A DNA stretch of 64,000 nt from an uncultured Verrucomicrobiae bacterium (GCA_963772365.1 CAVYXA010000001.1:448001-512000), one strand, 5' to 3'; counted from the stretch's first letter, positions 31,702 through 44,166 are shown. Program-made: numbers and translations. Notes: generated by a model not told the origin, from the letters alone.

Positions 31702-34065
31702 TTACGGCACGGAGTGGCCGATATTGACCTTCACCTGAATGACATCGGTGGCATTGATGTCTCCACTGGCGTTGATGTCACTGCGGAAATTGCTCGAGTC
31801 GACCGCGACGCCCACCTGCGCCTTGGTCTGCGCTACATCTGAGGCGTTCACGGTTGCATTGGCGCTGCTGTCGCCGATTAGCATGACTGCATTCACCGCA
31901 GTATCTGGCAATGTTTGACCAAAACTGTCCATTACATTGCTCGCCGTCACGGTGATCTGTTGCTGGTCAGTCACTCCGGTCAGGTTCACCGTCATCGTGC
32001 TGCCGGAGAAGATCGGACTACCGGCGACAGTTCCTGTCCCGCTGGTAACAGCGGCGTTGCCGCTAACAACTGGGTTCGAGAAAGTGAAGACAAGTGTGTG
32101 ATTACCTCCGCTGCTGCGACATTCCACTCCAGGCGACCCGGAAAGCGGAAGATCGACATCGAATGTGCCCGCGGGGCCGTGCGTCTTGCGCGAGACGACA
32201 CTCGCCAGCTGCAGTGGATTACACGCCGCCGGTGCCATGATCGGCACAGTGATTGGGCTTCCGGTTTTAAGGAAGCCAACCGTCGCATCGGCATTCTGCG
32301 GTGGTTGATTGGAGTCAAAGCGGAAATTGTACAACGTGCCAAATCGGATCGCATTAGCGTTCGGACTTTGCGCTAACGTTTCACAGTTCCAGGTGAGTGC
32401 GTTAGGCGTTTGATTCGATGCCCAGGGAGCATTGCTGAATCCGGCATCTCCCGCTGTTCCGTCGTTGGGGAATCCGGGATGATTGGGCGGAGCGTGAAAT
32501 CCGACATTGCTTATTGTCGCTCCACAACCCAACGGCACACTGAACGATTGGATGGATCGGTCGAGATTCTGATTGTGAATAGCGTATTCGTAATGCCAGA
32601 CGCCAGATGACGGATTGCTGACTTTGTAAACAACGAATGCGCGGCCATCGACTCCGGGATCGGGTTCGATAACGGCGGTGAACGAACCGATCCACGCGTC
32701 GGTGGCAGGTTTCATCCGCACGGCTGGGCCAGCAGGAGTGAAGGTGAAAGTGGACGTGCCGCTGACGTTGTAAGGTCGATAGGACGCGTTGTTATACATG
32801 TTGCATTCGCCGGGGTGCGACTGGCACCAGGCGTACTCCTGAGGAGTATCGTATTGCGCTTCGGCATAGTAAGTAGCGCCTGTGTTCAAAGTTGTATTCA
32901 GATCGCTCATTGCGACCAAAACTCGATGAGATGTCCCGGTGTGAACGTGACCGCTATGATTCCTGGCATTAGAAGGAAAGATCCCGGTGAAAGGGTTTAC
33001 CCAAGCTCGTGAGCCGAGCAGACTCTGAGTCGCATTTTCGCTGGCACTGTAAGGATCCGAACAGCCGACGCCAAGCTTGGTGAAATCGGGGTAGGGTGTG
33101 CAGCCGTAGCTGCAGTCGTCAAATTGATCGGCCCCGAATGTGTGTTTCACCCAGGATTGACCGATTTGCTCAAATCGGTCGTTGTTGTTCGAGCCGCCGC
33201 TCATACGATAAATGTTTTGTGATACAACGGAGTGATCGGTATTTGGCAGCTGGAAAAAATCGACTGGCTGGTCACCGTTGTTGCAAGAAATTGTTCCAAT
33301 TCCCAAACCTACTTGTGTTCCAGCGCTTCCCGATTGGACGATTGCCGGCATATCTCCCACGACAATGTCCGGTCCGTGAACCGAGGCCGGAATACCTGGA
33401 ATCGGGCCGCTTCGTGCGGGTAATATCGACGATTTAATCGCACCATTAGCGACGGTAATGACAGCGATTGGGCTAAGGATGGCATTTACAGTGATATGCC
33501 CTGCAATCGTTCCAGCGGCTGCTGGTTGCCCAAGTGTCTGGGCAAGCTGTTGCGAAATGAGAAGTTTTCCAGGTGTGATGCTGAATGAACGGTCATCAGC
33601 GTTGTAAGAATAGCTTTGTCCGTCGATGTTAAACAGAATCAAACCAGTTTGGGCGTCGCGCAGAACCAGATCGAACTGATCTGCCGGAGGGACTCTGTCG
33701 ATGGTAAGTCGGTGAAGCGAACTGTTCAGTGGTTCCGGGATGTCTCGGGTGTTCTCCCAGACCAAAATTAGAGTGCCGGTCTCCGGGCCGCGGAGGATAT
33801 GATTGAAAACTCGAAGAGTGAAGAACGAGTTCGCGCCGATTCTGAAACGGAGATTCTCTAATTGCGATTGCTCAGGGTGGCCGGGCGCCAGCCGATTCCG
33901 ATCGAGATCCAGAAAGACGGTGCCGTTTGTGACGAGCATTCGTTCGAGAGTGCCCGTCTGCCCTTCCGTTTTTTGATGTTCCATCTCTACTCCGAAATTT
34001 TGTCTGCTGGCGGTCGACAACAATATTATCGAAAGCGCAATGCGAGTAAGGGTTGTCTGTCTCAT
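31702..34065 (-). CDS. Secreted Cys/His-rich protein (lysyl oxidase-like core inferred) + 'SRKTHG' Ig-like + dockerin-like domain, paralog 1
   Basis: Signal-like N-terminus; 'FEQIGQSWVKHTF..CSYGC..LGVGCSDPY'; C-terminal 'GDSSANATVNASD..SDINASGDINATD'. Confidence 0.8.
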   Translation of the reverse strand: MRQTTLTRIALSIILLSTASRQNFGVEMEHQKTEGQTGTLERMLVTNGTVFLDLDRNRLAPGHPEQSQLENLRFRIGANSFFTLRVFNHILRGPETGTLILVWENTRDIPEPLNSSLHRLTIDRVPPADQFDLVLRDAQTGLILFNIDGQSYSYNADDRSFSITPGKLLISQQLAQTLGQPAAAGTIAGHITVNAILSPIAVITVANGAIKSSILPARSGPIPGIPASVHGPDIVVGDMPAIVQSGSAGTQVGLGIGTISCNNGDQPVDFFQLPNTDHSVVSQNIYRMSGGSNNNDRFEQIGQSWVKHTFGADQFDDCSYGCTPYPDFTKLGVGCSDPYSASENATQSLLGSRAWVNPFTGIFPSNARNHSGHVHTGTSHRVLVAMSDLNTTLNTGATYYAEAQYDTPQEYAWCQSHPGECNMYNNASYRPYNVSGTSTFTFTPAGPAVRMKPATDAWIGSFTAVIEPDPGVDGRAFVVYKVSNPSSGVWHYEYAIHNQNLDRSIQSFSVPLGCGATISNVGFHAPPNHPGFPNDGTAGDAGFSNAPWASNQTPNALTWNCETLAQSPNANAIRFGTLYNFRFDSNQPPQNADATVGFLKTGSPITVPIMAPAACNPLQLASVVSRKTHGPAGTFDVDLPLSGSPGVECRSSGGNHTLVFTFSNPVVSGNAAVTSGTGTVAGSPIFSGSTMTVNLTGVTDQQQITVTASNVMDSFGQTLPDTAVNAVMLIGDSSANATVNASDVAQTKAQVGVAVDSSNFRSDINASGDINATDVIQVKVNIGHSVP

Positions 34066-34166
34066 TCTGTTCTCTTTCCTATGTTTTAAGTTGCGGCAAC
34101 GGTCCAAAGGTAAGGCCGTGAATTGTTTACCAGGGCTAATTGGAAAAGAGGAGTTTTTTTTCACGC

Positions 34167-34203
34167 AAAAAAAAGCGGAGCGCTTTCACAAGCGCCCCGC
34201 TTC
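34167..34203 (-). terminator. Intrinsic terminator after paralog 2
   Basis: Minus strand GCGGGGCGCT-TGTGAA-AGCGCTCCGC followed by T8. Confidence 0.75.
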
Positions 34204-34251
34204 GCGACAGCCGTTCTTTTGGCGTGCCTGAACCAGATAGATCAAATGCAG

Positions 34252-36591
34252 TTATGGCACAGAATGACCGATGTTGACTTTTACCTGAGTGACATCGGTG
34301 GAATTGATATCTCCGCTGACGTTGATGTCGTTGCGGAAATTGCTCGAAGAAACCGCGGCGCCCACCTGCCCTTTTGTCTGGGCTACGTCTGTTGAATTGA
34401 CACTTTGATTGGCGCTGGTATCAGCGATCAGCATGACTGCGTTCACCGCGGTATCGGGCAATGTTTGACCAAATGTATCCATGACGTTGCTGGCTGTGAC
34501 TGTGATCTCTTGCTGGTCAGTAACCCCTGTCAGATTCACCGTCATCGTGTTGCCGGAAATAACGGGACTACCCGAGACGGTCCCCGTGCCAGCAGTGACG
34601 CTGGCGTCGCCACTGACGATCGGGTTACTGAAAGTGAACACAAGGGTGTGATTGCCACTGCTGCTGCGGCATTCCACTCCGGTTGATCCGGACAGCGGAA
34701 GATCGACATCGAACACGCCCGCAGCGCCGTGGGTCTTGCGCGAAACCACACTGGCCAGTTGCAATGGGTTGCATGCCAGCGGCGCCATGATTGGCACAGT
34801 AATTGGATCTCCATTCTTGAAGAAACCGATGGTCGCATTGGCCTCGTGTGGTGGTTGATCGGAGTCAAACCGGAAGTTGTAGAGTGTGCCCCAGCGGATT
34901 GCATTGGCATTTTGGTTTTGGGCAAATGTTTCGCAACTCCAGGTTACATCACTCGACGTCTGGGCAGGCGTCCATGGCGTACTGCTAAATCCCGCATTGT
35001 TTTGGGTTCCATCGTTTGTCCAGCCGGGGTGCTGTGGCGGAGCATGAAAGCCGAGATTGCTCACTGCGGCGCAAACCGTCGGCACGCTGAAGGACTGGAT
35101 CGCGCGATCGAGATTCTCGTTGTAAAGGGCATACTCGTAATGCCAGGTGCCAGCGGACGGATTGCTCACCTTGTAGGCAAGCATGCCGATTCCGTCATTA
35201 CCAGGGTCCGGCTCGAACGTATTAAAGTTCGCACCGGTCCAGGCGTTAATACCAGGACGCTGCCGCACCGTCGCGGCTACGGGATTAAACGTGAAGAACG
35301 TAGTTCCCACCGGGGTAAACTGCCGATAAGAAACGTTGTTATACATATTGCATTGGCCGGGATGGGCCTGACACCATGCGAATTCGTGTGGGGTGACGTA
35401 CTGACCTTCGGCAAAGTAGGTTGCGCCCGGATTCTGCGCGGGATCCAGATCGGAGATGGCAACAATCACCCGGTGCGATAAGCCGTTATGTGAGTGACCG
35501 GAATGGTTTGCCGGGCTGGGCGAACCTGGGAATGCACCGGTAAATGGATTGACCCACGCGCGAGAGCCAAGACCGCCCTGGCTGTAATTCAGACTCGCCA
35601 CATACGGATCGGAGCAGCCGGAACCGAGATGAGTTCCGCCCACACCGTTGCATCCGTAGCCGCAGACGTTTTGCGTGAGAGCGGTAAACGCGTGCTTGAG
35701 CCACGATTCACCGATCTGCTCAAAGCGCTCTGTGTTATCCGCCCCGCCGCTCATTCGATAAAGGTTTTGCGGAATCACCGGGTGATCATTGTTTGGCAAT
35801 TGGAACCAATCCAAATTCTCCGTCCCCGCATTACACGAAGTCGTGCCCACCCCCAATCCAACGAAACTGCCGACAGTTCCGTTGCTAGGCTCTTCGACCC
35901 CAGAAATATCCCCGACGATCACATCCGGCCCTGGAACATTACCGACCGCAGGCTGGCGCAAGGCCGGCATTCGTGCTGACTGCACGACGCCGTTCACGAC
36001 GCGATCAACTTCAATCGGATACACAGTTGCTCTAATCGAAATGTTACCCGCAACTGCGCCAGCAACAGAAGCGCGACCCAGCTGTTGAGCAAGCTCATGC
36101 GAAACCACGAGTCGGCCACCGGTAATGCTAAGCAGGTGTTGACCGGCATCGTATTTATAGTCGTGTCCCTCGATATTAAACAGCGTCGAACCATTTCGGC
36201 TATCGCGAATGGCAAGATCGAAATCATCGGATGGACCCATCTTCTGAATCGCCAGATGACTGAATGAGTCGGCCAAGGCTGTGGGAAGTGCCTTGGAATT
36301 TTGCGGCGTCAGGTTCATTGCACTCGGCTCCGGGCCGCGCAATTGATTGTTGGTGACCAGCAGAGTGAAGAATGAATCAGGCGAGACGGTAAAGCCCACG
36401 GCTTTGGTCGAAACGCCGAGCGCCTTTGAATCGAGATGCATTTCCACGGTTCCATTGCCGACGATCATTCGCTCGATGGTGACGGTTCCGTTGCCGGTTT
36501 TCTGGTTTGATTCAGCTTTTGAAGCCTCCGTGCTGTTACAGAAAAGCAGCAGCAGTGGAAGTGTGAAGTAGGTGGACAGTTTCTTTGACAT
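34252..36591 (-). CDS. Secreted LOX-like core + 'SRKTHG'/dockerin protein, paralog 2
   Basis: Signal peptide MSKKLSTYFTLPLLLLFC; 'SWLKHAF..CGYGC..LGSGCSDPY'; RBS (GGAGG) upstream. Confidence 0.85.
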   Translation of the reverse strand: MSKKLSTYFTLPLLLLFCNSTEASKAESNQKTGNGTVTIERMIVGNGTVEMHLDSKALGVSTKAVGFTVSPDSFFTLLVTNNQLRGPEPSAMNLTPQNSKALPTALADSFSHLAIQKMGPSDDFDLAIRDSRNGSTLFNIEGHDYKYDAGQHLLSITGGRLVVSHELAQQLGRASVAGAVAGNISIRATVYPIEVDRVVNGVVQSARMPALRQPAVGNVPGPDVIVGDISGVEEPSNGTVGSFVGLGVGTTSCNAGTENLDWFQLPNNDHPVIPQNLYRMSGGADNTERFEQIGESWLKHAFTALTQNVCGYGCNGVGGTHLGSGCSDPYVASLNYSQGGLGSRAWVNPFTGAFPGSPSPANHSGHSHNGLSHRVIVAISDLDPAQNPGATYFAEGQYVTPHEFAWCQAHPGQCNMYNNVSYRQFTPVGTTFFTFNPVAATVRQRPGINAWTGANFNTFEPDPGNDGIGMLAYKVSNPSAGTWHYEYALYNENLDRAIQSFSVPTVCAAVSNLGFHAPPQHPGWTNDGTQNNAGFSSTPWTPAQTSSDVTWSCETFAQNQNANAIRWGTLYNFRFDSDQPPHEANATIGFFKNGDPITVPIMAPLACNPLQLASVVSRKTHGAAGVFDVDLPLSGSTGVECRSSSGNHTLVFTFSNPIVSGDASVTAGTGTVSGSPVISGNTMTVNLTGVTDQQEITVTASNVMDTFGQTLPDTAVNAVMLIADTSANQSVNSTDVAQTKGQVGAAVSSSNFRNDINVSGDINSTDVTQVKVNIGHSVP

Positions 36592-36827
36592 TGTGATTTT
36601 GGTTCCTCCGAGTTTTTTAGCCTCAGCCCAAGGACGCCTTGCGTTGAGACCGAGGATTTATAAACACATTTTGTAAAAAAAGAGAGCTTTTTTTGGAATT
36701 ATTTTGGCCTGCAAGTTCAAACATTGAGGCTTCGGGGTCGAAATCCTCAGTGCGCGAAGCGACCGCCGCCGCACCAATAAAGCGGGGACAACGTTGGCCG
36801 TTTTTTAAATCGTGCGTCGGGAAGCGG

Positions 36828-39210
36828 TCACGGGACAAAGTGACCGATACTCACTTTCACCTGCGTGACATCGGTGGAATTGATATCTCCGCTGGTATTG
36901 ATGTCATTGCGGAAATTGCTCGAGTCGACCCCGGCGCCTACCTGACCTTTCACTTGCGCTACGTCTGAAGAATTGACTGTTCGATTGGCGCTGGTGTCCC
37001 CGATCAACATCACTGCATTCACAGTTGTGTTAGCCAGAGTTTGACCAAATGCGTCCATCACATTGCTGACCGTCACCGCGATCTGTTGCTGATCGATGAC
37101 GCCGGTCAGGTTCACCGTCATTGTGTTGCCAGAAAAAACCGGACTGCCTGAAAGGTTGCCGATGCCGCTGGTCACGGCGGCATTGCCACTCACGACGGGA
37201 TTGCTGAAAGTGAAGACGAAACTGTGATTGCCGCTGCTGCTGCGACATTCCACGCCCGTCGATCCAGATAGCGGAAGATCGACATCGAATGAACCAGCCG
37301 CGCCATGCGTCTTTCGCGAAACTACGCTGGTCAATTCCAGCGGATTACACGGATCATCCGGTGTCGGCACTTGCACCTGGACCATGATGTGCGAACCGGT
37401 TTTGAAAAAACCAATCGTCGCGTTCGCACTCGTGGGCGGCTTATTGCAATCAAACCGGAAATTGTACATCGTCCCGAAACGAATCGCATTCGCGTTCGGG
37501 TTCTGCGCGATTGTCTCGGTGCTCCAGGTTAGTGCTCCGCCTGCCTGGCTCGGTAGCCAGGGGAAGCTGCTATACCCCTGGTTGTTGAATGTTCCATCAT
37601 TTGCAAAGCCGGGATGCTGAGGCGGACAGTGAAACGCCACATTGCTCAGCGTCACACCGCAGCCTAACGGGATGCTCAAGGACTGGATCGCTCGATCTAG
37701 ATTTTCGTTATAGACCACATACTCGTAATGCCATGTTCCAGCCGAAGGATTACTCACTTTGAAGCCGACCACTCCGATCCCATCCGCGCCCGGCGCCGGT
37801 TCGAAAGTCCGCAATGTCGCTCCCGTCCAGGCTGCGATTGCGGGCTGCTCTCGCACGGTGGGACCGGCATTCGTAAAACTGAATGGCTGGTTGATCCCAA
37901 CTACATTATAACGGCGGTACGAAACATTGTCTGTACATATTGCACTGGCCGGGATGCGACTGGCACCAGGTGTATTCATGTGGAACGACGTATTGCGCTT
38001 CAGCGAAATATGTCGCTCCGGGATTCATCGACGCGTTCAAGTCGTTAACGTCAACCAGAATCCGGTGAGACGTGACGTCATGAACATGACCGCTGTGGTT
38101 GTTCGCTGTCGATCCGTTGAAATTGCCCGTGAACGGATTCACCCAGGCGCGTGACCCGATACCGGTTTGGCTGCCGTTCAAACCGCTGCCGTAGGCATCC
38201 GAGCAGCCGGAGCCAAGCTGACCGCCGCCCACGCCGTTGCATCCAAAACCGCATGTGTTTGAAGATGCTGCAGCAAATGCATGCTTGCCCCACGATTGGC
38301 CGATTTGCTCGAACTGCTGAGTGTTATCTGCGCCGCCACTCATTCGATAAAGATTCTGTGGAATAAAAGGATGGTCGTTGTTTGGCAGGGCGAACCAATC
38401 CGCATTCTCGGTTCCTTTGTTGCAGGCGTCGGTTCCCAGAGCGAGTCCGACACGACCGCCGACGGAACCCGTCTCAGATTGGTCCAACCCAATCAGCTCG
38501 CCAACGATGACGTCCGGACCGGGGACAGTGCCGACCGCAGGGTCATTCACCGGTGGCAGCGTAGCGGATTCCAGATGGCCATTCTCGTCAAGCTGCGCGA
38601 TCTCTGTGGTGTGCATGGTTCCGCTGACGGAGATCGTTCCAACTACCGTACCGGCATCCGCCGAACTGCCCAATTCGTCAGCAAATTGTGGCGAAAGCAG
38701 AAGCGTCGCACCACTGATGGTGAACAACTTTGCGTTGGCATCATAATCGTAATGCCCTCCTTCAATGGAAAAAAAGACGATTCCCGTTCCGCCATCGCGC
38801 ACTGTGAAATTTAACGATTCACTTGAATCAAGTTTTTCAATCATCAGATGGCTGAATGATTCGCTCAACAGAGAGGGAAAGCCTCGAAGGTTTCGTGATT
38901 GGGGGATGAGCGTCATCGAGCCGGGCTCAACACCGCGTAACAGGTCGTTAAAAACGAAAATTGGGAAGAAAGAATTGGCTCCTACTGCGAATCGCAGTGA
39001 TACGGTTCTCGGCGGGATCAAGCTAGATCCATTGAGCCGGTTCAAATCAAGTTCCATCGCAACGCTTCCGGTCGCGACGATCATTTTCTGCAATGTGCCG
39101 GATTTGCTATTCGCAGCTTTAGGTTCGGGACCTGCGACAGAGGTTGCCGAGCTATTGCAGAACAGCAAAACCAGTGGGAGCGCGAGATAAGTGAGCAGTT
39201 TGTTCGACAT
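36828..39210 (-). CDS. Secreted LOX-like core + 'SRKTHG'/dockerin protein, paralog 3 (frameshift near 37930)
   Basis: ORFs 37906-39210 and 36828-37979 join at 'CNMY/NVSYR', collinear with paralogs 1 and 2. Confidence 0.82.
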
Positions 39211-39378
39211 TGTTTTCTAATCCTCCGATTCGTTGAACTTCAACAAAAGCTTGTGAAAAGCTGATCTCGTTTGTTACAGCCTCACCAAAAAAAGTAGAGC
39301 CCTTTTTTTATCGGTTTTTTGTGCGATATGTTTCGCCCCCCACAATGGGCCGTCGCGCCCCCGAAAGCAGGGGATCTC

Positions 39379-41271
39379 GTGAAAAGTGGTTGCATCAGCC
39401 CCGAACTAAAGCGCTCGCCATCGAAACCGCGCTCCATCGTGAAAGGTAGTTTCGTTCCGAACACGATTCGTAAATCGAAAACGAGCCGCTGGCGGGCCGC
39501 TGCCCTGATTGCTCTGAACCTGTTGATGATTGGCCACTTCATCCAGTGGTACTTCGCGGGCAAGACAATCTCGCCGATCGAGCCATCCGAAACGATGCAG
39601 ACGCTGCAGCATGGCTTCGTCAATGCCGGGTTCATCTTCTTTACTCTCGCAATTCTCGCCACGCTGATTTTTGGGCGCTTCGTCTGCGGCTGGGGTTGTC
39701 ACATTCTGGCGCTGCAGGATCTTTGCGGCTGGCTCCTCAAAAAAATGGGCATGACGCCTAAACCGTTTCGCTCGCGGCTGCTGGTTTATGTTCCGTTGAT
39801 CGGCGCCTTATACATGTTTGTCTGGCCGACAGCTTATAGATTCTTCGCTGGGACAGAGGCTGGCCCGCTCATTCCAAAGTTCACCAATCATCTCGTCACC
39901 ACGAATTATTGGGAGACGTTTGCTACGGTCTCCGTCGCGATTCCTTTTCTGTTCGTTTGCGGATTCATGACGGTCAATTTTTTGGGGCAGAAAGGATTTT
40001 GCACTTACGCCTGTCCCTATGGCGGTTTCTTTGGGCTGGCCGATAAATTTTCGCCTGGAAAAATCCGTGTAACCGACGCCTGCAATCAATGCGGCCATTG
40101 CACTGCCACCTGCACATCGAACGTTCTTGTTCACGCTGAGGTGAAGCAGTTCAAGATGGTTGTCGATCCTGGCTGCATGAAATGTATGGATTGCGTCAGC
40201 GTTTGTCCAAATGACGCGTTGTACTTCGGTTTTGGGAAACCGAGTTTGCTGGCGCCAAAATCGAGCTCATTCAAACGATCCTATTCGTTAACCTGGCCGG
40301 AAGAAATCGTAGGCGCAGTCGTTTTCTTCGGAAGTTTTCTATCAGTTCGCGGCGTCTATTCTCTGGTTCCTTTTTTGATGGCGCTGGGCTGCGCCTCGGT
40401 CACGACCTTTCTCACTCTGAAGACGTGGCGGTTGATTCGAGACCGCGAGGTTTCGTTTTATCGATTCTGTTTGAAATCTTCCCGTGGAATCCAAAAAGCA
40501 GGATGGGGGTTTTCTGCTTTTGCGGTGGTCTGGATCGGATTGAACGTCCACAGCGGCTGGATCCGGTACAACGAGCATGAGGGCGACCGCGCATTTCGGC
40601 AGTTAAAAATTCCTGATGAGCTGGCGCTGGCGCAGCTAAATCCCAGCCGTTGGCTCGCTCCATCCGATCGCGAGAATATCCAGCAAGGAACACGATATCT
40701 GGAAACGGCGTTGAATTTTGGTCTGTTTAAGAACAGCGAAGGGCTTTCGAAACTTGCCTGGTTCCAATATCTTTCCGGCGACCCGGAACGCTGTTTGCAG
40801 TTGCTGGATCAAGCAGCGGGGCGCCAGCGAAGTCAGGGCAAAGCGTTGAGTCTGTATTATAGCGGGGCAATTCTCAATCGGCTGGGCCGCTACCAAGAAG
40901 CACTGACAAAACTCGATCAAGCTCTGGTTGCACGGGACGATCTCATCCTCGCACGCCAGGAAAAAGGCGAATCGCTATGGCAACTTGGGCGTAAACAAGA
41001 GGCCATTGCAGCTTGGGAAAATGCTCTGAAACAGAATTCCACGTTGCCCTTGGCCAATAACGAACTGGCCGGCGCTGAGCAGGCCCTTGGCAGATTTGAG
41101 GAAGCCGCCGTGCATGAACAACAGGCAGATCAGTTCACGCCTAATGATCCATACTTCCACTGGATGCTTGGTCAACGCCTTCGCGCTCTCGATATGACGG
41201 AGCTGGCCGAAAAACATTTTCAGCGGACTCGTCAGCTCGATCCTGGCTTGCAAAAAGGATCTAGTGAGTAG
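39379..41271 (+). CDS. Membrane polyferredoxin (NapH/MauN-like 4Fe-4S binding) with C-terminal TPR domain; start uncertain
   Basis: 'FGRFVCGWGCH', 'FCTYACPYG', 'CNQCGHCTATC', 'CMKCMDCVSVCP'; TM helices; TPR-like 'LGRYQEAL', 'LGRKQEAI', 'LGRFEEAA'. Confidence 0.85.
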   Translation: MKSGCISPELKRSPSKPRSIVKGSFVPNTIRKSKTSRWRAAALIALNLLMIGHFIQWYFAGKTISPIEPSETMQTLQHGFVNAGFIFFTLAILATLIFGRFVCGWGCHILALQDLCGWLLKKMGMTPKPFRSRLLVYVPLIGALYMFVWPTAYRFFAGTEAGPLIPKFTNHLVTTNYWETFATVSVAIPFLFVCGFMTVNFLGQKGFCTYACPYGGFFGLADKFSPGKIRVTDACNQCGHCTATCTSNVLVHAEVKQFKMVVDPGCMKCMDCVSVCPNDALYFGFGKPSLLAPKSSSFKRSYSLTWPEEIVGAVVFFGSFLSVRGVYSLVPFLMALGCASVTTFLTLKTWRLIRDREVSFYRFCLKSSRGIQKAGWGFSAFAVVWIGLNVHSGWIRYNEHEGDRAFRQLKIPDELALAQLNPSRWLAPSDRENIQQGTRYLETALNFGLFKNSEGLSKLAWFQYLSGDPERCLQLLDQAAGRQRSQGKALSLYYSGAILNRLGRYQEALTKLDQALVARDDLILARQEKGESLWQLGRKQEAIAAWENALKQNSTLPLANNELAGAEQALGRFEEAAVHEQQADQFTPNDPYFHWMLGQRLRALDMTELAEKHFQRTRQLDPGLQKGSSE

Positions 41272-42271
41272 TGGAAAGCAGCAGACGCGAAAGGGTAACG
41301 CGCCCGCCGAATTCGGTATAAGCGAAAACACCTGGTTGCGGTGAAAACGCAATCGAATGGACATCGTTGTCCTTGGGGAACAAGGCCAGGCTGTGGCCGT
41401 CCCGGGCGCTCCAGAATTGAAGCGCGCCTAATCCATTCCCACGACCATATCCGGCGGCAATAACGGAGCCATCGCGCGAGAAGGCGACTGTCGGGTATTC
41501 GAAGCTTGTCTGAATATTCAGGAATATGAGCAATTCTCCATCGGCGACCCGCCAGACCTTCACCGCATTTTCCGACTGTACCGTGCCGGCAATCAAATTG
41601 CCGTTGGGCGAAAATGCGATCGAATTAACTTCGGCGTTTGGAATTCTCAGTAATAGCACGCCATCCGCAGCACGTCGCAGTTTTACTCCGTAGATGTCGC
41701 CCGACCCAATCAATTGGCCATCCGGCGAGAAGGCGGAATCTTTTACACGCGGCGGGAGTCCGGGACTCTGCGGATCGTCATTCGGAATGGTCCTGATCAG
41801 CGCCAGATCCGGCACATGCCACAATTTGATCTCCCTCGAGTATCTGCCCGATGTAACCAAATACTGGCCATCGGATGAAAGGCTCACGCTGTTGGTCCCA
41901 TTCGTATGCGCGGCGAGTCTCAGAAGACGGACGCCATCCGATACTCGCCACAAATTCAAACTGTATGTCGATCCTCCGCCGCCGGTGCCGTTGATCAAGT
42001 ATTGATCGTCCAGGGTAAAAACCAGATCGTTGGTCGTGTTATGACTCGCGGTGAAGGAGCGGATCAAGCTGCCGTCAATAGCGCGTAGAAAATCCGACGT
42101 ATTACTGTCTTCTCTGCCCAGGGCAAGGATCGATCCATCGCTTGAGAACGCGACGTTGAGCAATGGATCGGCATCCTGCTTCGACCAGATCACTCTTTCG
42201 CTTTGCGCCTGGACCGTGCCGGCAGCAACAATCCACGCCAATACAACCAAATGACTAATATTCCTTTTCAT
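41261..42271 (-). CDS. Secreted WD40 beta-propeller protein
   Basis: Signal peptide ending 'VQA'; repeated 'xAFSxDG..LWRVxDG' units. Confidence 0.85.
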   Translation of the reverse strand: MKRNISHLVVLAWIVAAGTVQAQSERVIWSKQDADPLLNVAFSSDGSILALGREDSNTSDFLRAIDGSLIRSFTASHNTTNDLVFTLDDQYLINGTGGGGSTYSLNLWRVSDGVRLLRLAAHTNGTNSVSLSSDGQYLVTSGRYSREIKLWHVPDLALIRTIPNDDPQSPGLPPRVKDSAFSPDGQLIGSGDIYGVKLRRAADGVLLLRIPNAEVNSIAFSPNGNLIAGTVQSENAVKVWRVADGELLIFLNIQTSFEYPTVAFSRDGSVIAAGYGRGNGLGALQFWSARDGHSLALFPKDNDVHSIAFSPQPGVFAYTEFGGRVTLSRLLLSTTH

Positions 42272-42294
42272 AATCACATCTCCTCCGTCACAAT

Positions 42295-44166
42295 TTAGGG
42301 CAGTCCGTGGCCCCCATTGGCTTTAACCATGGAACTGTCGGTGGCGTTGATCGTGCCGTTGACATTCACGTCCGACCGAAAATTCGTGGTATCCAGCGTT
42401 TGACCAATTCGAGCTTTGGTCTGGCTGACGTCGCTCGCGTTTACCGCGCCATTTCCATTTGTATCGCCCAGTAGAATACTGACGTTCACTGTCGTGTCGG
42501 GCAAAACCCGAGAAGCGGAATCTGTGACATTGCTAAGCAGCAGCGTAACCGTCTGCGCATCCGTCACCCCGGTTAAGTTTACCGTCATCGTCTGACCCTG
42601 GTAAGCGGGAGGGCCGGAGATAGTGGCCGTTCCACTCGTTACGCTCACATTGCCGCTCACGACATCACTATTAAAGGTAAAGACGAGCGTATGATTGCCT
42701 CCGCTGCTCCGGCATTCCACCCCAGGCTGACCGCTGAGCGGCAGGTTAATGTCGAACGTGCCTGCGCTGCCGTGCGTTTTTCGCGAGGCCGCAGCTGTAA
42801 GTTGGAAGCCGTCGAGGTATCGCGCCAGCGCGAAATCGCTGTTCTGATAATACTGATCGCTGGAGGTATAACCACCCGCGACGAGTTTGCCATCGGGTTG
42901 AAATGCAAGGGCCACGCCTGTGGTCGACTGGCCGAAGGATGTCGTGACTATACCACCGTTGCCAAAAGTCGAATCGAGGGAGCCGTTTATGTCGAAGCGC
43001 AACAAGTGAAATGCAGAGTCCGATGTAAAATTGCCACTTCCGAGAGCGATTAGCTTGCCATCGCTTTGAAGCGCTACCGCATTGAGACCCCCTTGGTCCT
43101 GCATGAGCACCTTTCCGCCGTTGCCGAAGCTCTGATCGAACGAACCGTCTGGATTGAACCGCGCCAGGGCGAAACTATCGTAGGGGCTATTAACCTCGGC
43201 CCATCCTACCAGAACGATTTTGCCGTCAGTTTGAAGGACGGCATCGTTGGCAGCGTCCCAGTTACTACTAAAATTGGCTAACGCATGGCCGTCGCCCGAA
43301 AATGTTGTGTCGAGCGTGCCGTTGGGGTTATAACGGGCGACCAGGAATTGGTAGGTGGACCCACCGGCGATAACGAGTTTGCCATCCGGTTGGATCATTA
43401 GCGCAACGGCGTAACTCTCCGTGCCTTGCCCGAAATCATTGGTCACTATGCCGCCGTTGCCAAAGGTCGTGTCAAGCGAGCCATCGGGATTGTACCGAGC
43501 CAGGGCCACATTCCCTTTTCTCTGGTCGGCTGGATAAAAAAAGATGCCTTTGCGTCCAGCGGCTACTATTTTCCCATCAGACTGAAGCGCGAGCGCATAG
43601 GCCTGGTCATCGTCGGGCCCGACATTGGTTGTTACTATTCCACCGTTGCCGAAAGTGGGATCGACCGACCCGTTCGAGTTGAAGCGTAGCAGAACAAATG
43701 AACTATCACTTTGGGAAGGCAGATCGATGCTTCCACTGATCATAATCTTGCCATCCGGCAGAATGAGCAACCCAGCTGCGCTTTCCCGGACCGAGGCCAC
43801 GGTTATCACTTTGCCGCCATTGCCAAATGTCGGGTCGAGTGTGCCATCCGGATTGTAGCGAGCAAGCGCGCCCTTGTGGCTCGGGTGGGTATCACCAATG
43901 GCGATGATTTTGCCGTCGGGCTGGACCGCAATGCGGTTCAAATAGTCAACGCTATTGTTAAAGTCGGTCACGACCTTGCCACCGTTGCCAAATGTCGGGT
44001 CAAGTTCGCCATCCGTCGCTCGCGCAGTGTGTTCGCTGGTGAAAAACGCCACCATCATTGTCGCTGCGAAAACAAAGCCGCGCCAAATTGCTTTCCAGTT
44101 TTTTGTGGAAAGGAATTGTGCGGACTGTTGCCTGATTTCAATTTTGGTAAAAAATAACATGGTCAT
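42295..44166 (-). CDS. Secreted delta-60 repeat beta-propeller + 'SRKTHG'/dockerin module
   Basis: Seven 'DG.LD.TFG.GG' units with 'QPDGKI'; C-terminal 'ASRKTHGSAGTFDINLPL..GDTNGNGAVNASD..SDVNVNGTINATD'. Confidence 0.88.
   Translation of the reverse strand: MTMLFFTKIEIRQQSAQFLSTKNWKAIWRGFVFAATMMVAFFTSEHTARATDGELDPTFGNGGKVVTDFNNSVDYLNRIAVQPDGKIIAIGDTHPSHKGALARYNPDGTLDPTFGNGGKVITVASVRESAAGLLILPDGKIMISGSIDLPSQSDSSFVLLRFNSNGSVDPTFGNGGIVTTNVGPDDDQAYALALQSDGKIVAAGRKGIFFYPADQRKGNVALARYNPDGSLDTTFGNGGIVTNDFGQGTESYAVALMIQPDGKLVIAGGSTYQFLVARYNPNGTLDTTFSGDGHALANFSSNWDAANDAVLQTDGKIVLVGWAEVNSPYDSFALARFNPDGSFDQSFGNGGKVLMQDQGGLNAVALQSDGKLIALGSGNFTSDSAFHLLRFDINGSLDSTFGNGGIVTTSFGQSTTGVALAFQPDGKLVAGGYTSSDQYYQNSDFALARYLDGFQLTAAASRKTHGSAGTFDINLPLSGQPGVECRSSGGNHTLVFTFNSDVVSGNVSVTSGTATISGPPAYQGQTMTVNLTGVTDAQTVTLLLSNVTDSASRVLPDTTVNVSILLGDTNGNGAVNASDVSQTKARIGQTLDTTNFRSDVNVNGTINATDSSMVKANGGHGLP

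Follow-up and report, generated by a model that had tools for sequence, protein, structure and literature searches.

Introduction

As a cofactor, lysine tyrosylquinone (LTQ) is described, in a 2025 review, as forming autocatalytically with copper and O2 and is listed there for lysyl oxidase (LOX) only; as of that review, no structure of mature LTQ had been solved (PMC11951088). LOX activity requires three core histidines together with the lysine and the tyrosine (PMC4448552), and an archaeal LOX takes many amines (PMC6452851). In LOXL2, the calcium ligands are Asp549, Glu722, Asp724, Asn727 and Asn728, Cys663 pairs with Cys685 (PMC5899467), and Ala654 lies in a patch beside Tyr689 (PMC9659206). 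Among membrane iron-sulfur proteins, NapH and NosR share a membrane module and feed electrons to or activate exported metalloenzymes (PMC5928378), and Cu(II) reduction by CcoG runs through a pair of iron-sulfur clusters (PMC7558416). Here we describe three tandem genes for likely secreted proteins, and a divergent gene for a membrane iron-sulfur protein (the partner), in a 64,000-nucleotide stretch of DNA (the window) from an uncultured Verrucomicrobiae bacterium (GCA_963772365.1, CAVYXA010000001.1:448001-512000). The three paralogs belong to an unnamed and unannotated family, expanded in common soil bacteria (Verrucomicrobiota, Acidobacteriota), whose central domain (the core) is predicted to fold like LOX, keeps a candidate Lys-Tyr cofactor pair and lacks the HxHxH copper motif.

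Results

The core is predicted to adopt the lysyl oxidase fold

The three genes and the domain in question are as follows, with positions counted from the first letter of the window.

31702-34065, minus strand: paralog 1, start set at the ATG before RQTT (an alternative GTG lies upstream, at 34164)
34252-36591, minus strand: paralog 2 (P0002, 779 amino acids), the reference for residue numbers
36828-39210, minus strand: paralog 3, split into open reading frames (ORFs) 37906-39210 and 36828-37979, with a one-base insertion at 37931
35227-35940, minus strand: predicted LOX-fold domain (core) of paralog 2, residues 218-455, from the AlphaFold model and structure search

AlphaFold modeled the core with a mean predicted local distance difference test score (pLDDT) of 95.3 alone and 96.0 together with the domain that follows it (D2). 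When the core model was compared with 48,161 chains, human LOXL2 (5ZE3) ranked first, with a Z score of 9.4 and a root-mean-square deviation (rmsd) of 3.8 over 166 aligned residues that extend from 3 to 236 of the model and from 546 to 763 of the chain; the runner-up had a Z score of 7.3 with 111 residues aligned. Two chains of 5ZE3 also took ranks 1 and 2 when Foldseek was given the core alone (E 6-7e-3, probability 0.90-0.96), and comparison of the two-domain model with LOXL2 gave a VIA Z of 8.8. These models predict a LOX-like fold, and core and LOX very probably share a common ancestor. An earlier reading of this DNA, made from sequence alone (the sequence-only reading), had proposed a LOX-like core; structure searches back the proposal, whereas PF01186 and HHalign searches, detailed in the Discussion, were negative. 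Although the family is not a member of PF01186, under which it is not filed because the profile match and HxHxH both fail, it is predicted to work like lysyl oxidase.

Motif blocks place candidate cofactor residues in the lysyl oxidase register

35782-35784, minus strand: His270, equivalent to LOXL2 His630 or His628, the sole histidine left in the copper-motif segment
35692-35697, minus strand: Lys299 and His300, at the positions of LOXL2 Lys653 and Ala654
35602-35604, minus strand: Tyr330, candidate cofactor tyrosine, at the position of LOXL2 Tyr689

The register was derived from seven motif blocks of our choosing, placed without gaps in a profile of 75 bacterial LOX domains, with LOXL2 numbering transferred through an alignment of a Streptomyces lysyl oxidase to 5ZE3. 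For five of the seven blocks the best placement was the expected one; for another the expected placement came second, and the remaining block fell elsewhere. Lys299 fell on the LTQ lysine (block z 4.2) and Tyr330 on the LTQ tyrosine (block z 4.3), and the collinear local profile score was 48.1, compared with 30.3 +/- 3.7 in 30 block shuffles (shuffle maximum 37.9), although the path behind that score left the lysine and tyrosine out of register. The block placement makes Lys299 the candidate cofactor lysine. His270 falls on His630 when counted from the downstream strand and on His628 when counted from the upstream tryptophan. By predicted secondary structure His270 and His300 stand at opposite ends of one hairpin; His270 may be a metal ligand and His300 a replacement for one of those lost.

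Counterparts of other LOXL2 features were identified by motif. Those of the calcium site are D223 (338/340 domains), E/D403 (339/340), N415 (318/335), N418 (330/333) and N419 (328/333), the position of Asp724 being Asn in the family, and those of the Cys663-Cys685 pair are C310 and C326, each present in 350/351.

The lysine and tyrosine are conserved and lost together

The 439 domains collected were reduced to 351 by dereplication at 90% identity. His270 is present in 346/350 of these, Lys299 in 344/351, His300 in 348/351, D328 in 343/351 and Tyr330 in 341/350, levels well beyond those expected by chance. Conservation of the lysine and tyrosine in the wider family had been set beforehand as a test of the candidate pair: of the 349 domains in which every tested column has a letter, both residues are present in 340, neither in seven, the lysine only in two and the tyrosine only in none, and one of the two lysine-only domains looks frameshifted. 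In a FastTree tree made without the tested columns, the double losses occupy three places, corresponding to two or three independent events. Loss of His270 together with His300 was a single event, found in two sister sequences. The Lys-Tyr pair named as a cofactor candidate by the sequence-only reading is therefore backed by conservation, joint loss and motif register, and its spacings of 32, 31 and 31 residues in paralogs 1, 2 and 3 proved correct; across the family the spacing is mostly 30-35 and is 31 in 221/341. We consider it more likely than not that Lys299 and Tyr330 form a quinone.

Two proteins, P0179 and P0235, contain two cores each. In P0179 both domains, and in P0235 the first, lack the lysine and tyrosine and retain His270 and His300.

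As the earlier reading had noted, HxHxH is absent: none of the 351 domains has it, nor even HxH ending at His270. That reading had looked to other histidines for a rewired metal site. His270 and His300, each ~99% conserved, are consistent with this idea, whereas the histidines of its NHSGHxH motif are limited to a clade.

35488-35508, minus strand: NHSGHSH motif, clade-limited, predicted at the interface with D2

Because they are present in 212-215 of 339-349 domains, and so missing in ~40%, we rejected NHSGHxH as a family-wide replacement copper site. The requirement of LOX for three histidines, a lysine and a tyrosine (PMC4448552) is therefore only half answered in this family. Copper is slightly more likely than not to be the bound metal.

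In the same host family we found a PF01186-positive secreted protein (L001:1045-3033 in G048:C12) that lacks HxHxH and keeps the Lys and Tyr motifs. In the set of 75 domains built from relatives of this protein, only 28 have HxHxH; loss of the copper motif is therefore common among proteins already labeled lysyl oxidase.

A single-copy membrane iron-sulfur protein accompanies the family

39319-41271, plus strand: partner gene, divergent from the paralogs; NapH/NosR/CcoG-type module with membrane segments, the motifs CX3CH and CX3CP, a pair of 4Fe-4S motifs and, at the C terminus, tetratricopeptide repeats (TPRs)

The sequence-only reading, which ended just short of this gene, missed it, as it did the paralog 3 frameshift. 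Among 49 partner sequences, the two 4Fe-4S motifs and CX3CP, the second of the CX3C motifs, are kept in at least 95%; the first is CX3CH, and by hydropathy the 4Fe-4S motifs face the cytoplasm. The partner scores 69.6 bits against TIGR02163, below the cut-off of 213.05.

The partner adjoins a family gene in 52/68 genome loci (Verrucomicrobiota, Acidobacteriota); apart from it, no genuine gene turns up in more than eight of the 68. In the host family (101 genomes), 29 genomes have both genes, two the core only, three the partner only and 67 neither; the two core-only genomes are fragmented assemblies and one partner-only case is cut at a contig start. The genes are divergent neighbors in 27 of the 29. 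In a sample of 251 Acidobacteriota genomes centered on one chosen for having the family, the same 16 genomes have both genes (E 1e-8 and 1e-40) and 235 have neither; in 15 of the 16 the genes share a contig, 10 divergent and five co-oriented. The partner is single-copy, compared with up to 19 core matches per genome. The genome with 19 (G288:C1) carries them in several arrays; tandem arrays reach six copies (G288, L013, L016 and L021), and several copies in these assemblies are broken by frameshifts.

The second domain packs against the core in predicted models

34771-35226, minus strand: D2 of paralog 2, ~residues 456-607, a predicted immunoglobulin (Ig)-like beta sandwich

Most full-length members carry D2 in fusion with the LOX-fold domain. 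With the two-domain model, copper proteins of the YcnI/DUF1775 type rank highest among its fold matches (Z 9.8 and 9.5), with AP2 mu tied at 9.2. Two of its histidines are well conserved among 96 sequences, His516 in 80% and His521 in 89%.

When core and D2 were folded as separate chains, the score was 0.96, compared with 0.00 for the best control. The mark used was reached by 116/157 solved pairs and 2/215 mismatched pairs, counts that are only roughly valid here, and domains taken from a single chain would be expected to pass. Contacts agreed between runs at 96% or more, with partner-chain pLDDT of at least 94. In the predicted interface His516 lies against Glu291, and His521, Trp297 and the NHSGH stretch also take part. 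We therefore found no support for His516 or His521 as the third ligand of the core site, Glu291 being at a distance of nine residues from His300 on the strand. The model leaves room for a separate site where core and D2 meet. The YcnI monohistidine brace is N-terminal, and no such brace can be assigned to D2, which is internal in the proteins examined.

Two residues, His373 (35473-35475) and Asp at 517 (35041-35043), never occur together in the 96 two-domain sequences: 42 have the histidine only, 42 the aspartate only and 12 neither, a pattern that follows the clade split. The alternation may mark two versions of an interface site.

Architecture, family size and distribution

35962-36504, minus strand: N-domain of paralog 2 (~residues 30-210), optional within the family, with a weak HtaA-like lead
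34255-34764, minus strand: C-terminal Ig and dockerin-like module of paralog 2

Each paralog has a signal-peptide-like N terminus (by inspection), an N-domain of ~180 amino acids, a core of ~240, D2 of ~150 and the C-terminal module; the proteins are likely secreted. The N-domain has no Pfam or PDB match and, among 126 sequences, no His or Tyr conserved above 82%; its likeness to HtaA (PF04213), an ESM Atlas feature score of 0.81 to a cluster in which 11% of members are HtaA, is a lead only. Dockerin_1 scores 19.2 in paralog 2, under the cut-off of 22.9. The C-terminal module occurs at 41 places in the host genome and is likely a lineage-specific module for surface display or sorting. A delta-60 repeat protein encoded at 42295-44166 of the window ends in the same module.

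At 50% identity, 2,027 clusters match the core (E up to 0.001), and architecture counts rest on the best 150 of these, of which 109 contain core and D2 and the remainder are largely short fragments. Many members are 1,000-2,400 residues long, and among 47 proteins scanned the extra terminal domains include Calx-beta, PKD, kelch, TSP3, HYR, glucose/sorbosone dehydrogenase and cytochrome c. The core is covered by none of the models in Pfam or NCBIfam (both searched with the window proteins, Pfam also with relatives), and it matched only unnamed ESM Atlas clusters, all below 0.9. The family was not found in 200 other sampled genomes of the host phylum and surfaced once the host family was sampled; a plasmid collection held no match to the core gene or the partner gene. 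Our literature searches, whose coverage excluded most subscription journals, turned up no earlier description of the family.

The host genome carries a fourth copy (L075:1402-3192; G000:C1 ~1142300-1144090) that has no N-domain. It keeps the lysine, both histidines and NHxGHxH, and has Glu at the cofactor-tyrosine position; the cofactor would therefore be lacking there.

The locus and the frameshift in paralog 3

The sequence-only reading had listed a series of motifs, in one order, for all three paralogs. This is correct for paralogs 1 and 2, whereas paralog 3 is not a single ORF. Its ORF 37906-39210 contains the motifs through GATYFAE and stops after N-M-Y; ORF 36828-37979, in the other frame, carries NVSY, D2 and the C-terminal module. 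DNA alignments with relatives place one surplus base at 37931. Since the two halves have 86% and 72% identity to their same-genus counterpart, equal to the best matches of the intact paralogs, and the assembly contains further split genes among its copies of the C-terminal module (3/41), the frameshift is likely an assembly error or a very recent lesion. Close relatives are labeled Chthoniobacterales or Candidatus Udaeobacter, which makes the host a probable soil verrucomicrobium.

34172-34203, minus strand: terminator-like hairpin (14 pairs and a T run) between paralogs 2 and 1

Terminator-like sites over the whole region number 12, compared with 12.1 in shuffles, and a promoter scan of the region gave a signal at or below chance. 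A WD40 beta-propeller gene with a signal-peptide-like start (window 41261-42277) converges on the partner gene, with an 11-base overlap of their ends; it is not a conserved neighbor of family loci.

Discussion

How might a LOX-like domain work with only two conserved histidines near its site? One possibility is that Lys299 and Tyr330 form LTQ next to a metal, most likely copper, with His270 and His300 as its ligands. The TPRs of the partner would hold the enzyme outside the membrane during export, and its CX3C/4Fe-4S module would supply reduced copper or electrons, a step beyond the reach of the reduced ligand set alone. Once mature, the enzyme would carry out oxidative deamination of primary amines on the outside of the cell, its target set by the variable C-terminal domains; of the steps proposed, the substrate is the least secure, and surface cross-linking is one possible use. 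Taken whole, our tentative reading is of a secreted quinoprotein of the LTQ type, matured by its partner and with a metal site of two histidines; it falls somewhat short of an even chance.

A number of results weigh against it. The E value of 5ZE3 in Foldseek misses the 0.001 mark, with TM-scores of 0.35-0.38, and with the two-domain model Foldseek did not list LOXL2, returning generic beta-rich proteins only. PF01186 had no match in four window ORFs (E up to 1) or over the host genome at E up to 10, the control genomes likewise giving none, and was not among the families listed for 47 relatives; searches of the PDB by sequence and by profile gave no LOXL2 match. HHalign against the 75 bacterial LOX domains reached a probability of ~1% (E 0.05), against one LOX-like protein it detected no link, and its forced alignment, like the Smith-Waterman path, leaves the lysine and tyrosine out of register. 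We did not find a third metal ligand, the two conserved histidines being the only ones near the site, and no copper-handling gene recurs among neighbors of family loci. His270, Lys299, His300 and Tyr330 are not named in the predicted D2 interface, in which unnamed residues are uncertain. Finally, the partner adjoins only 10/74 distant metagenome loci, many on short contigs, and the genomes in which the two genes co-occur are related and not independent samples, so that a Fisher test exaggerates the strength of the association.

It is also possible, if unlikely, that the same Lys-Tyr quinone serves a periplasmic amine dehydrogenase, with the partner as electron acceptor to the quinone pool and the D2 histidines perhaps as a relay. 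Electron exchange with the quinol pool is a property of NapH-type modules (PMC5928378), CxxCH motifs occur in 18/350 family proteins, with weak Pfam cytochrome c matches in three, and losing two copper histidines would be in keeping with an enzyme for which O2 is not the electron acceptor. The conserved D2 histidines and the YcnI/DUF1775 fold matches also fit, although those matches are tied with AP2 mu. However, a single partner copy stands against as many as 19 core matches, its 4Fe-4S motifs read as cytoplasm-facing, and members of 1,000-2,400 residues with Calx-beta, PKD, TSP3, HYR or kelch domains suggest action where an inner-membrane protein could not reach. We prefer maturation to catalytic electron transfer because each partner has numerous paralogs to serve, of which many are large and resemble adhesins.

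Another explanation, which we regard as improbable, is that the LOX fold has been re-used, with the lysine and tyrosine as an unmodified catalytic pair or a non-quinone crosslink, a non-copper site (for example, H270, H300 and D328 with iron, manganese or zinc) and a partner that reduces the metal. The absence of HxHxH from every domain, the retention of D328 two residues before the tyrosine, the lack of recurrent copper genes nearby and a divergence from LOX beyond HHalign detection would all be consistent with such chemistry. However, LOXL2 and the Streptomyces LOX have the same aspartate two before the tyrosine, and exactly the two cofactor precursors are kept, and lost jointly, for which the same cofactor is the simplest account. 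That the proteins are non-catalytic surface adhesins or scaffolds, with structural conserved residues and a regulatory or historical partner link, is very unlikely: paralog arrays, variable adhesin-type C-terminal domains and tyrosine-less copies, one in the host genome, fit this idea, but the lysine, tyrosine and two histidines are 97-99% conserved among domains down to ~40% identity, and both genes occur in the same 16/251 Acidobacteriota genomes in several gene orders.

If the quinoprotein reading is correct, a function would be gained for a family that is expanded in common soil bacteria and lacks annotation, and the family might provide soluble bacterial amine oxidases for structural work. 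The ~2,000 clusters (50% identity), in which the precursors are kept, two copper ligands are dropped and a membrane redox protein is linked, would make it possible to test directly the requirements of LTQ formation, the natural Lys/Tyr-less and His-less variants serving as controls. A larger view, speculative and doubtful as a whole, is that the family is a second, very large LTQ class whose cofactor is built or recycled by a membrane iron-sulfur/TPR protein instead of self-assembling at a three-histidine copper site. One partner might then activate an arsenal of surface amine-oxidizing enzymes in abundant soil Verrucomicrobiota and Acidobacteriota, some of which would pass electrons to a fused haem c and not to oxygen.

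Among known systems, lysyl oxidase (PF01186; LOXL2, 5ZE3; for prokaryotic LOX, PMC4448552 and PMC6452851) is likened to the family by its whole-domain fold, as predicted, its LTQ lysine and tyrosine, calcium ligands, cysteine pair, one copper histidine and secretion. In contrast to LOX, the family lacks HxHxH, the segment that would bear it is shortened, and a new histidine follows the lysine; the Lys-Tyr spacing is mostly 30-35, compared with 35-36 in LOX. The family also has a fused second domain, falls under PF01186 detection and is tied to a membrane iron-sulfur protein. D2 itself most resembles YcnI/DUF1775 (7ME6, 3ESM; PMC8424229), its top fold matches (Z 9.5-9.8, 104-109 residues aligned, rmsd 2.7). 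However, these matches are tied with unrelated Ig-like folds, and the copper site of YcnI is N-terminal, which is impossible for an internal domain.

The partner has in common with the NapH/MauN/NosR/CcoG polyferredoxins (PF12801; TIGR02163) its membrane segments, a pair of CX3C motifs, a pair of 4Fe-4S motifs and a place beside the gene of an exported redox protein. It differs in its first motif, CX3CH, its additional membrane segments and its C-terminal TPR domain, and no NapG/MauM-like gene or flavin domain was found among the recurring neighbors or Pfam matches. With the tryptophylquinone enzymes (MADH/MauG, QHNDH/QhpD-G and LodA/LodB; PMC11951088), the likeness is that the gene for a protein-derived quinone, here a candidate, travels with an accessory redox protein, and that some members have haem c fusions. 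The folds are unrelated, the cofactor of the family would be tyrosine-based, and the accessory here is a membrane iron-sulfur protein rather than a dihaem, radical-SAM or flavin enzyme.

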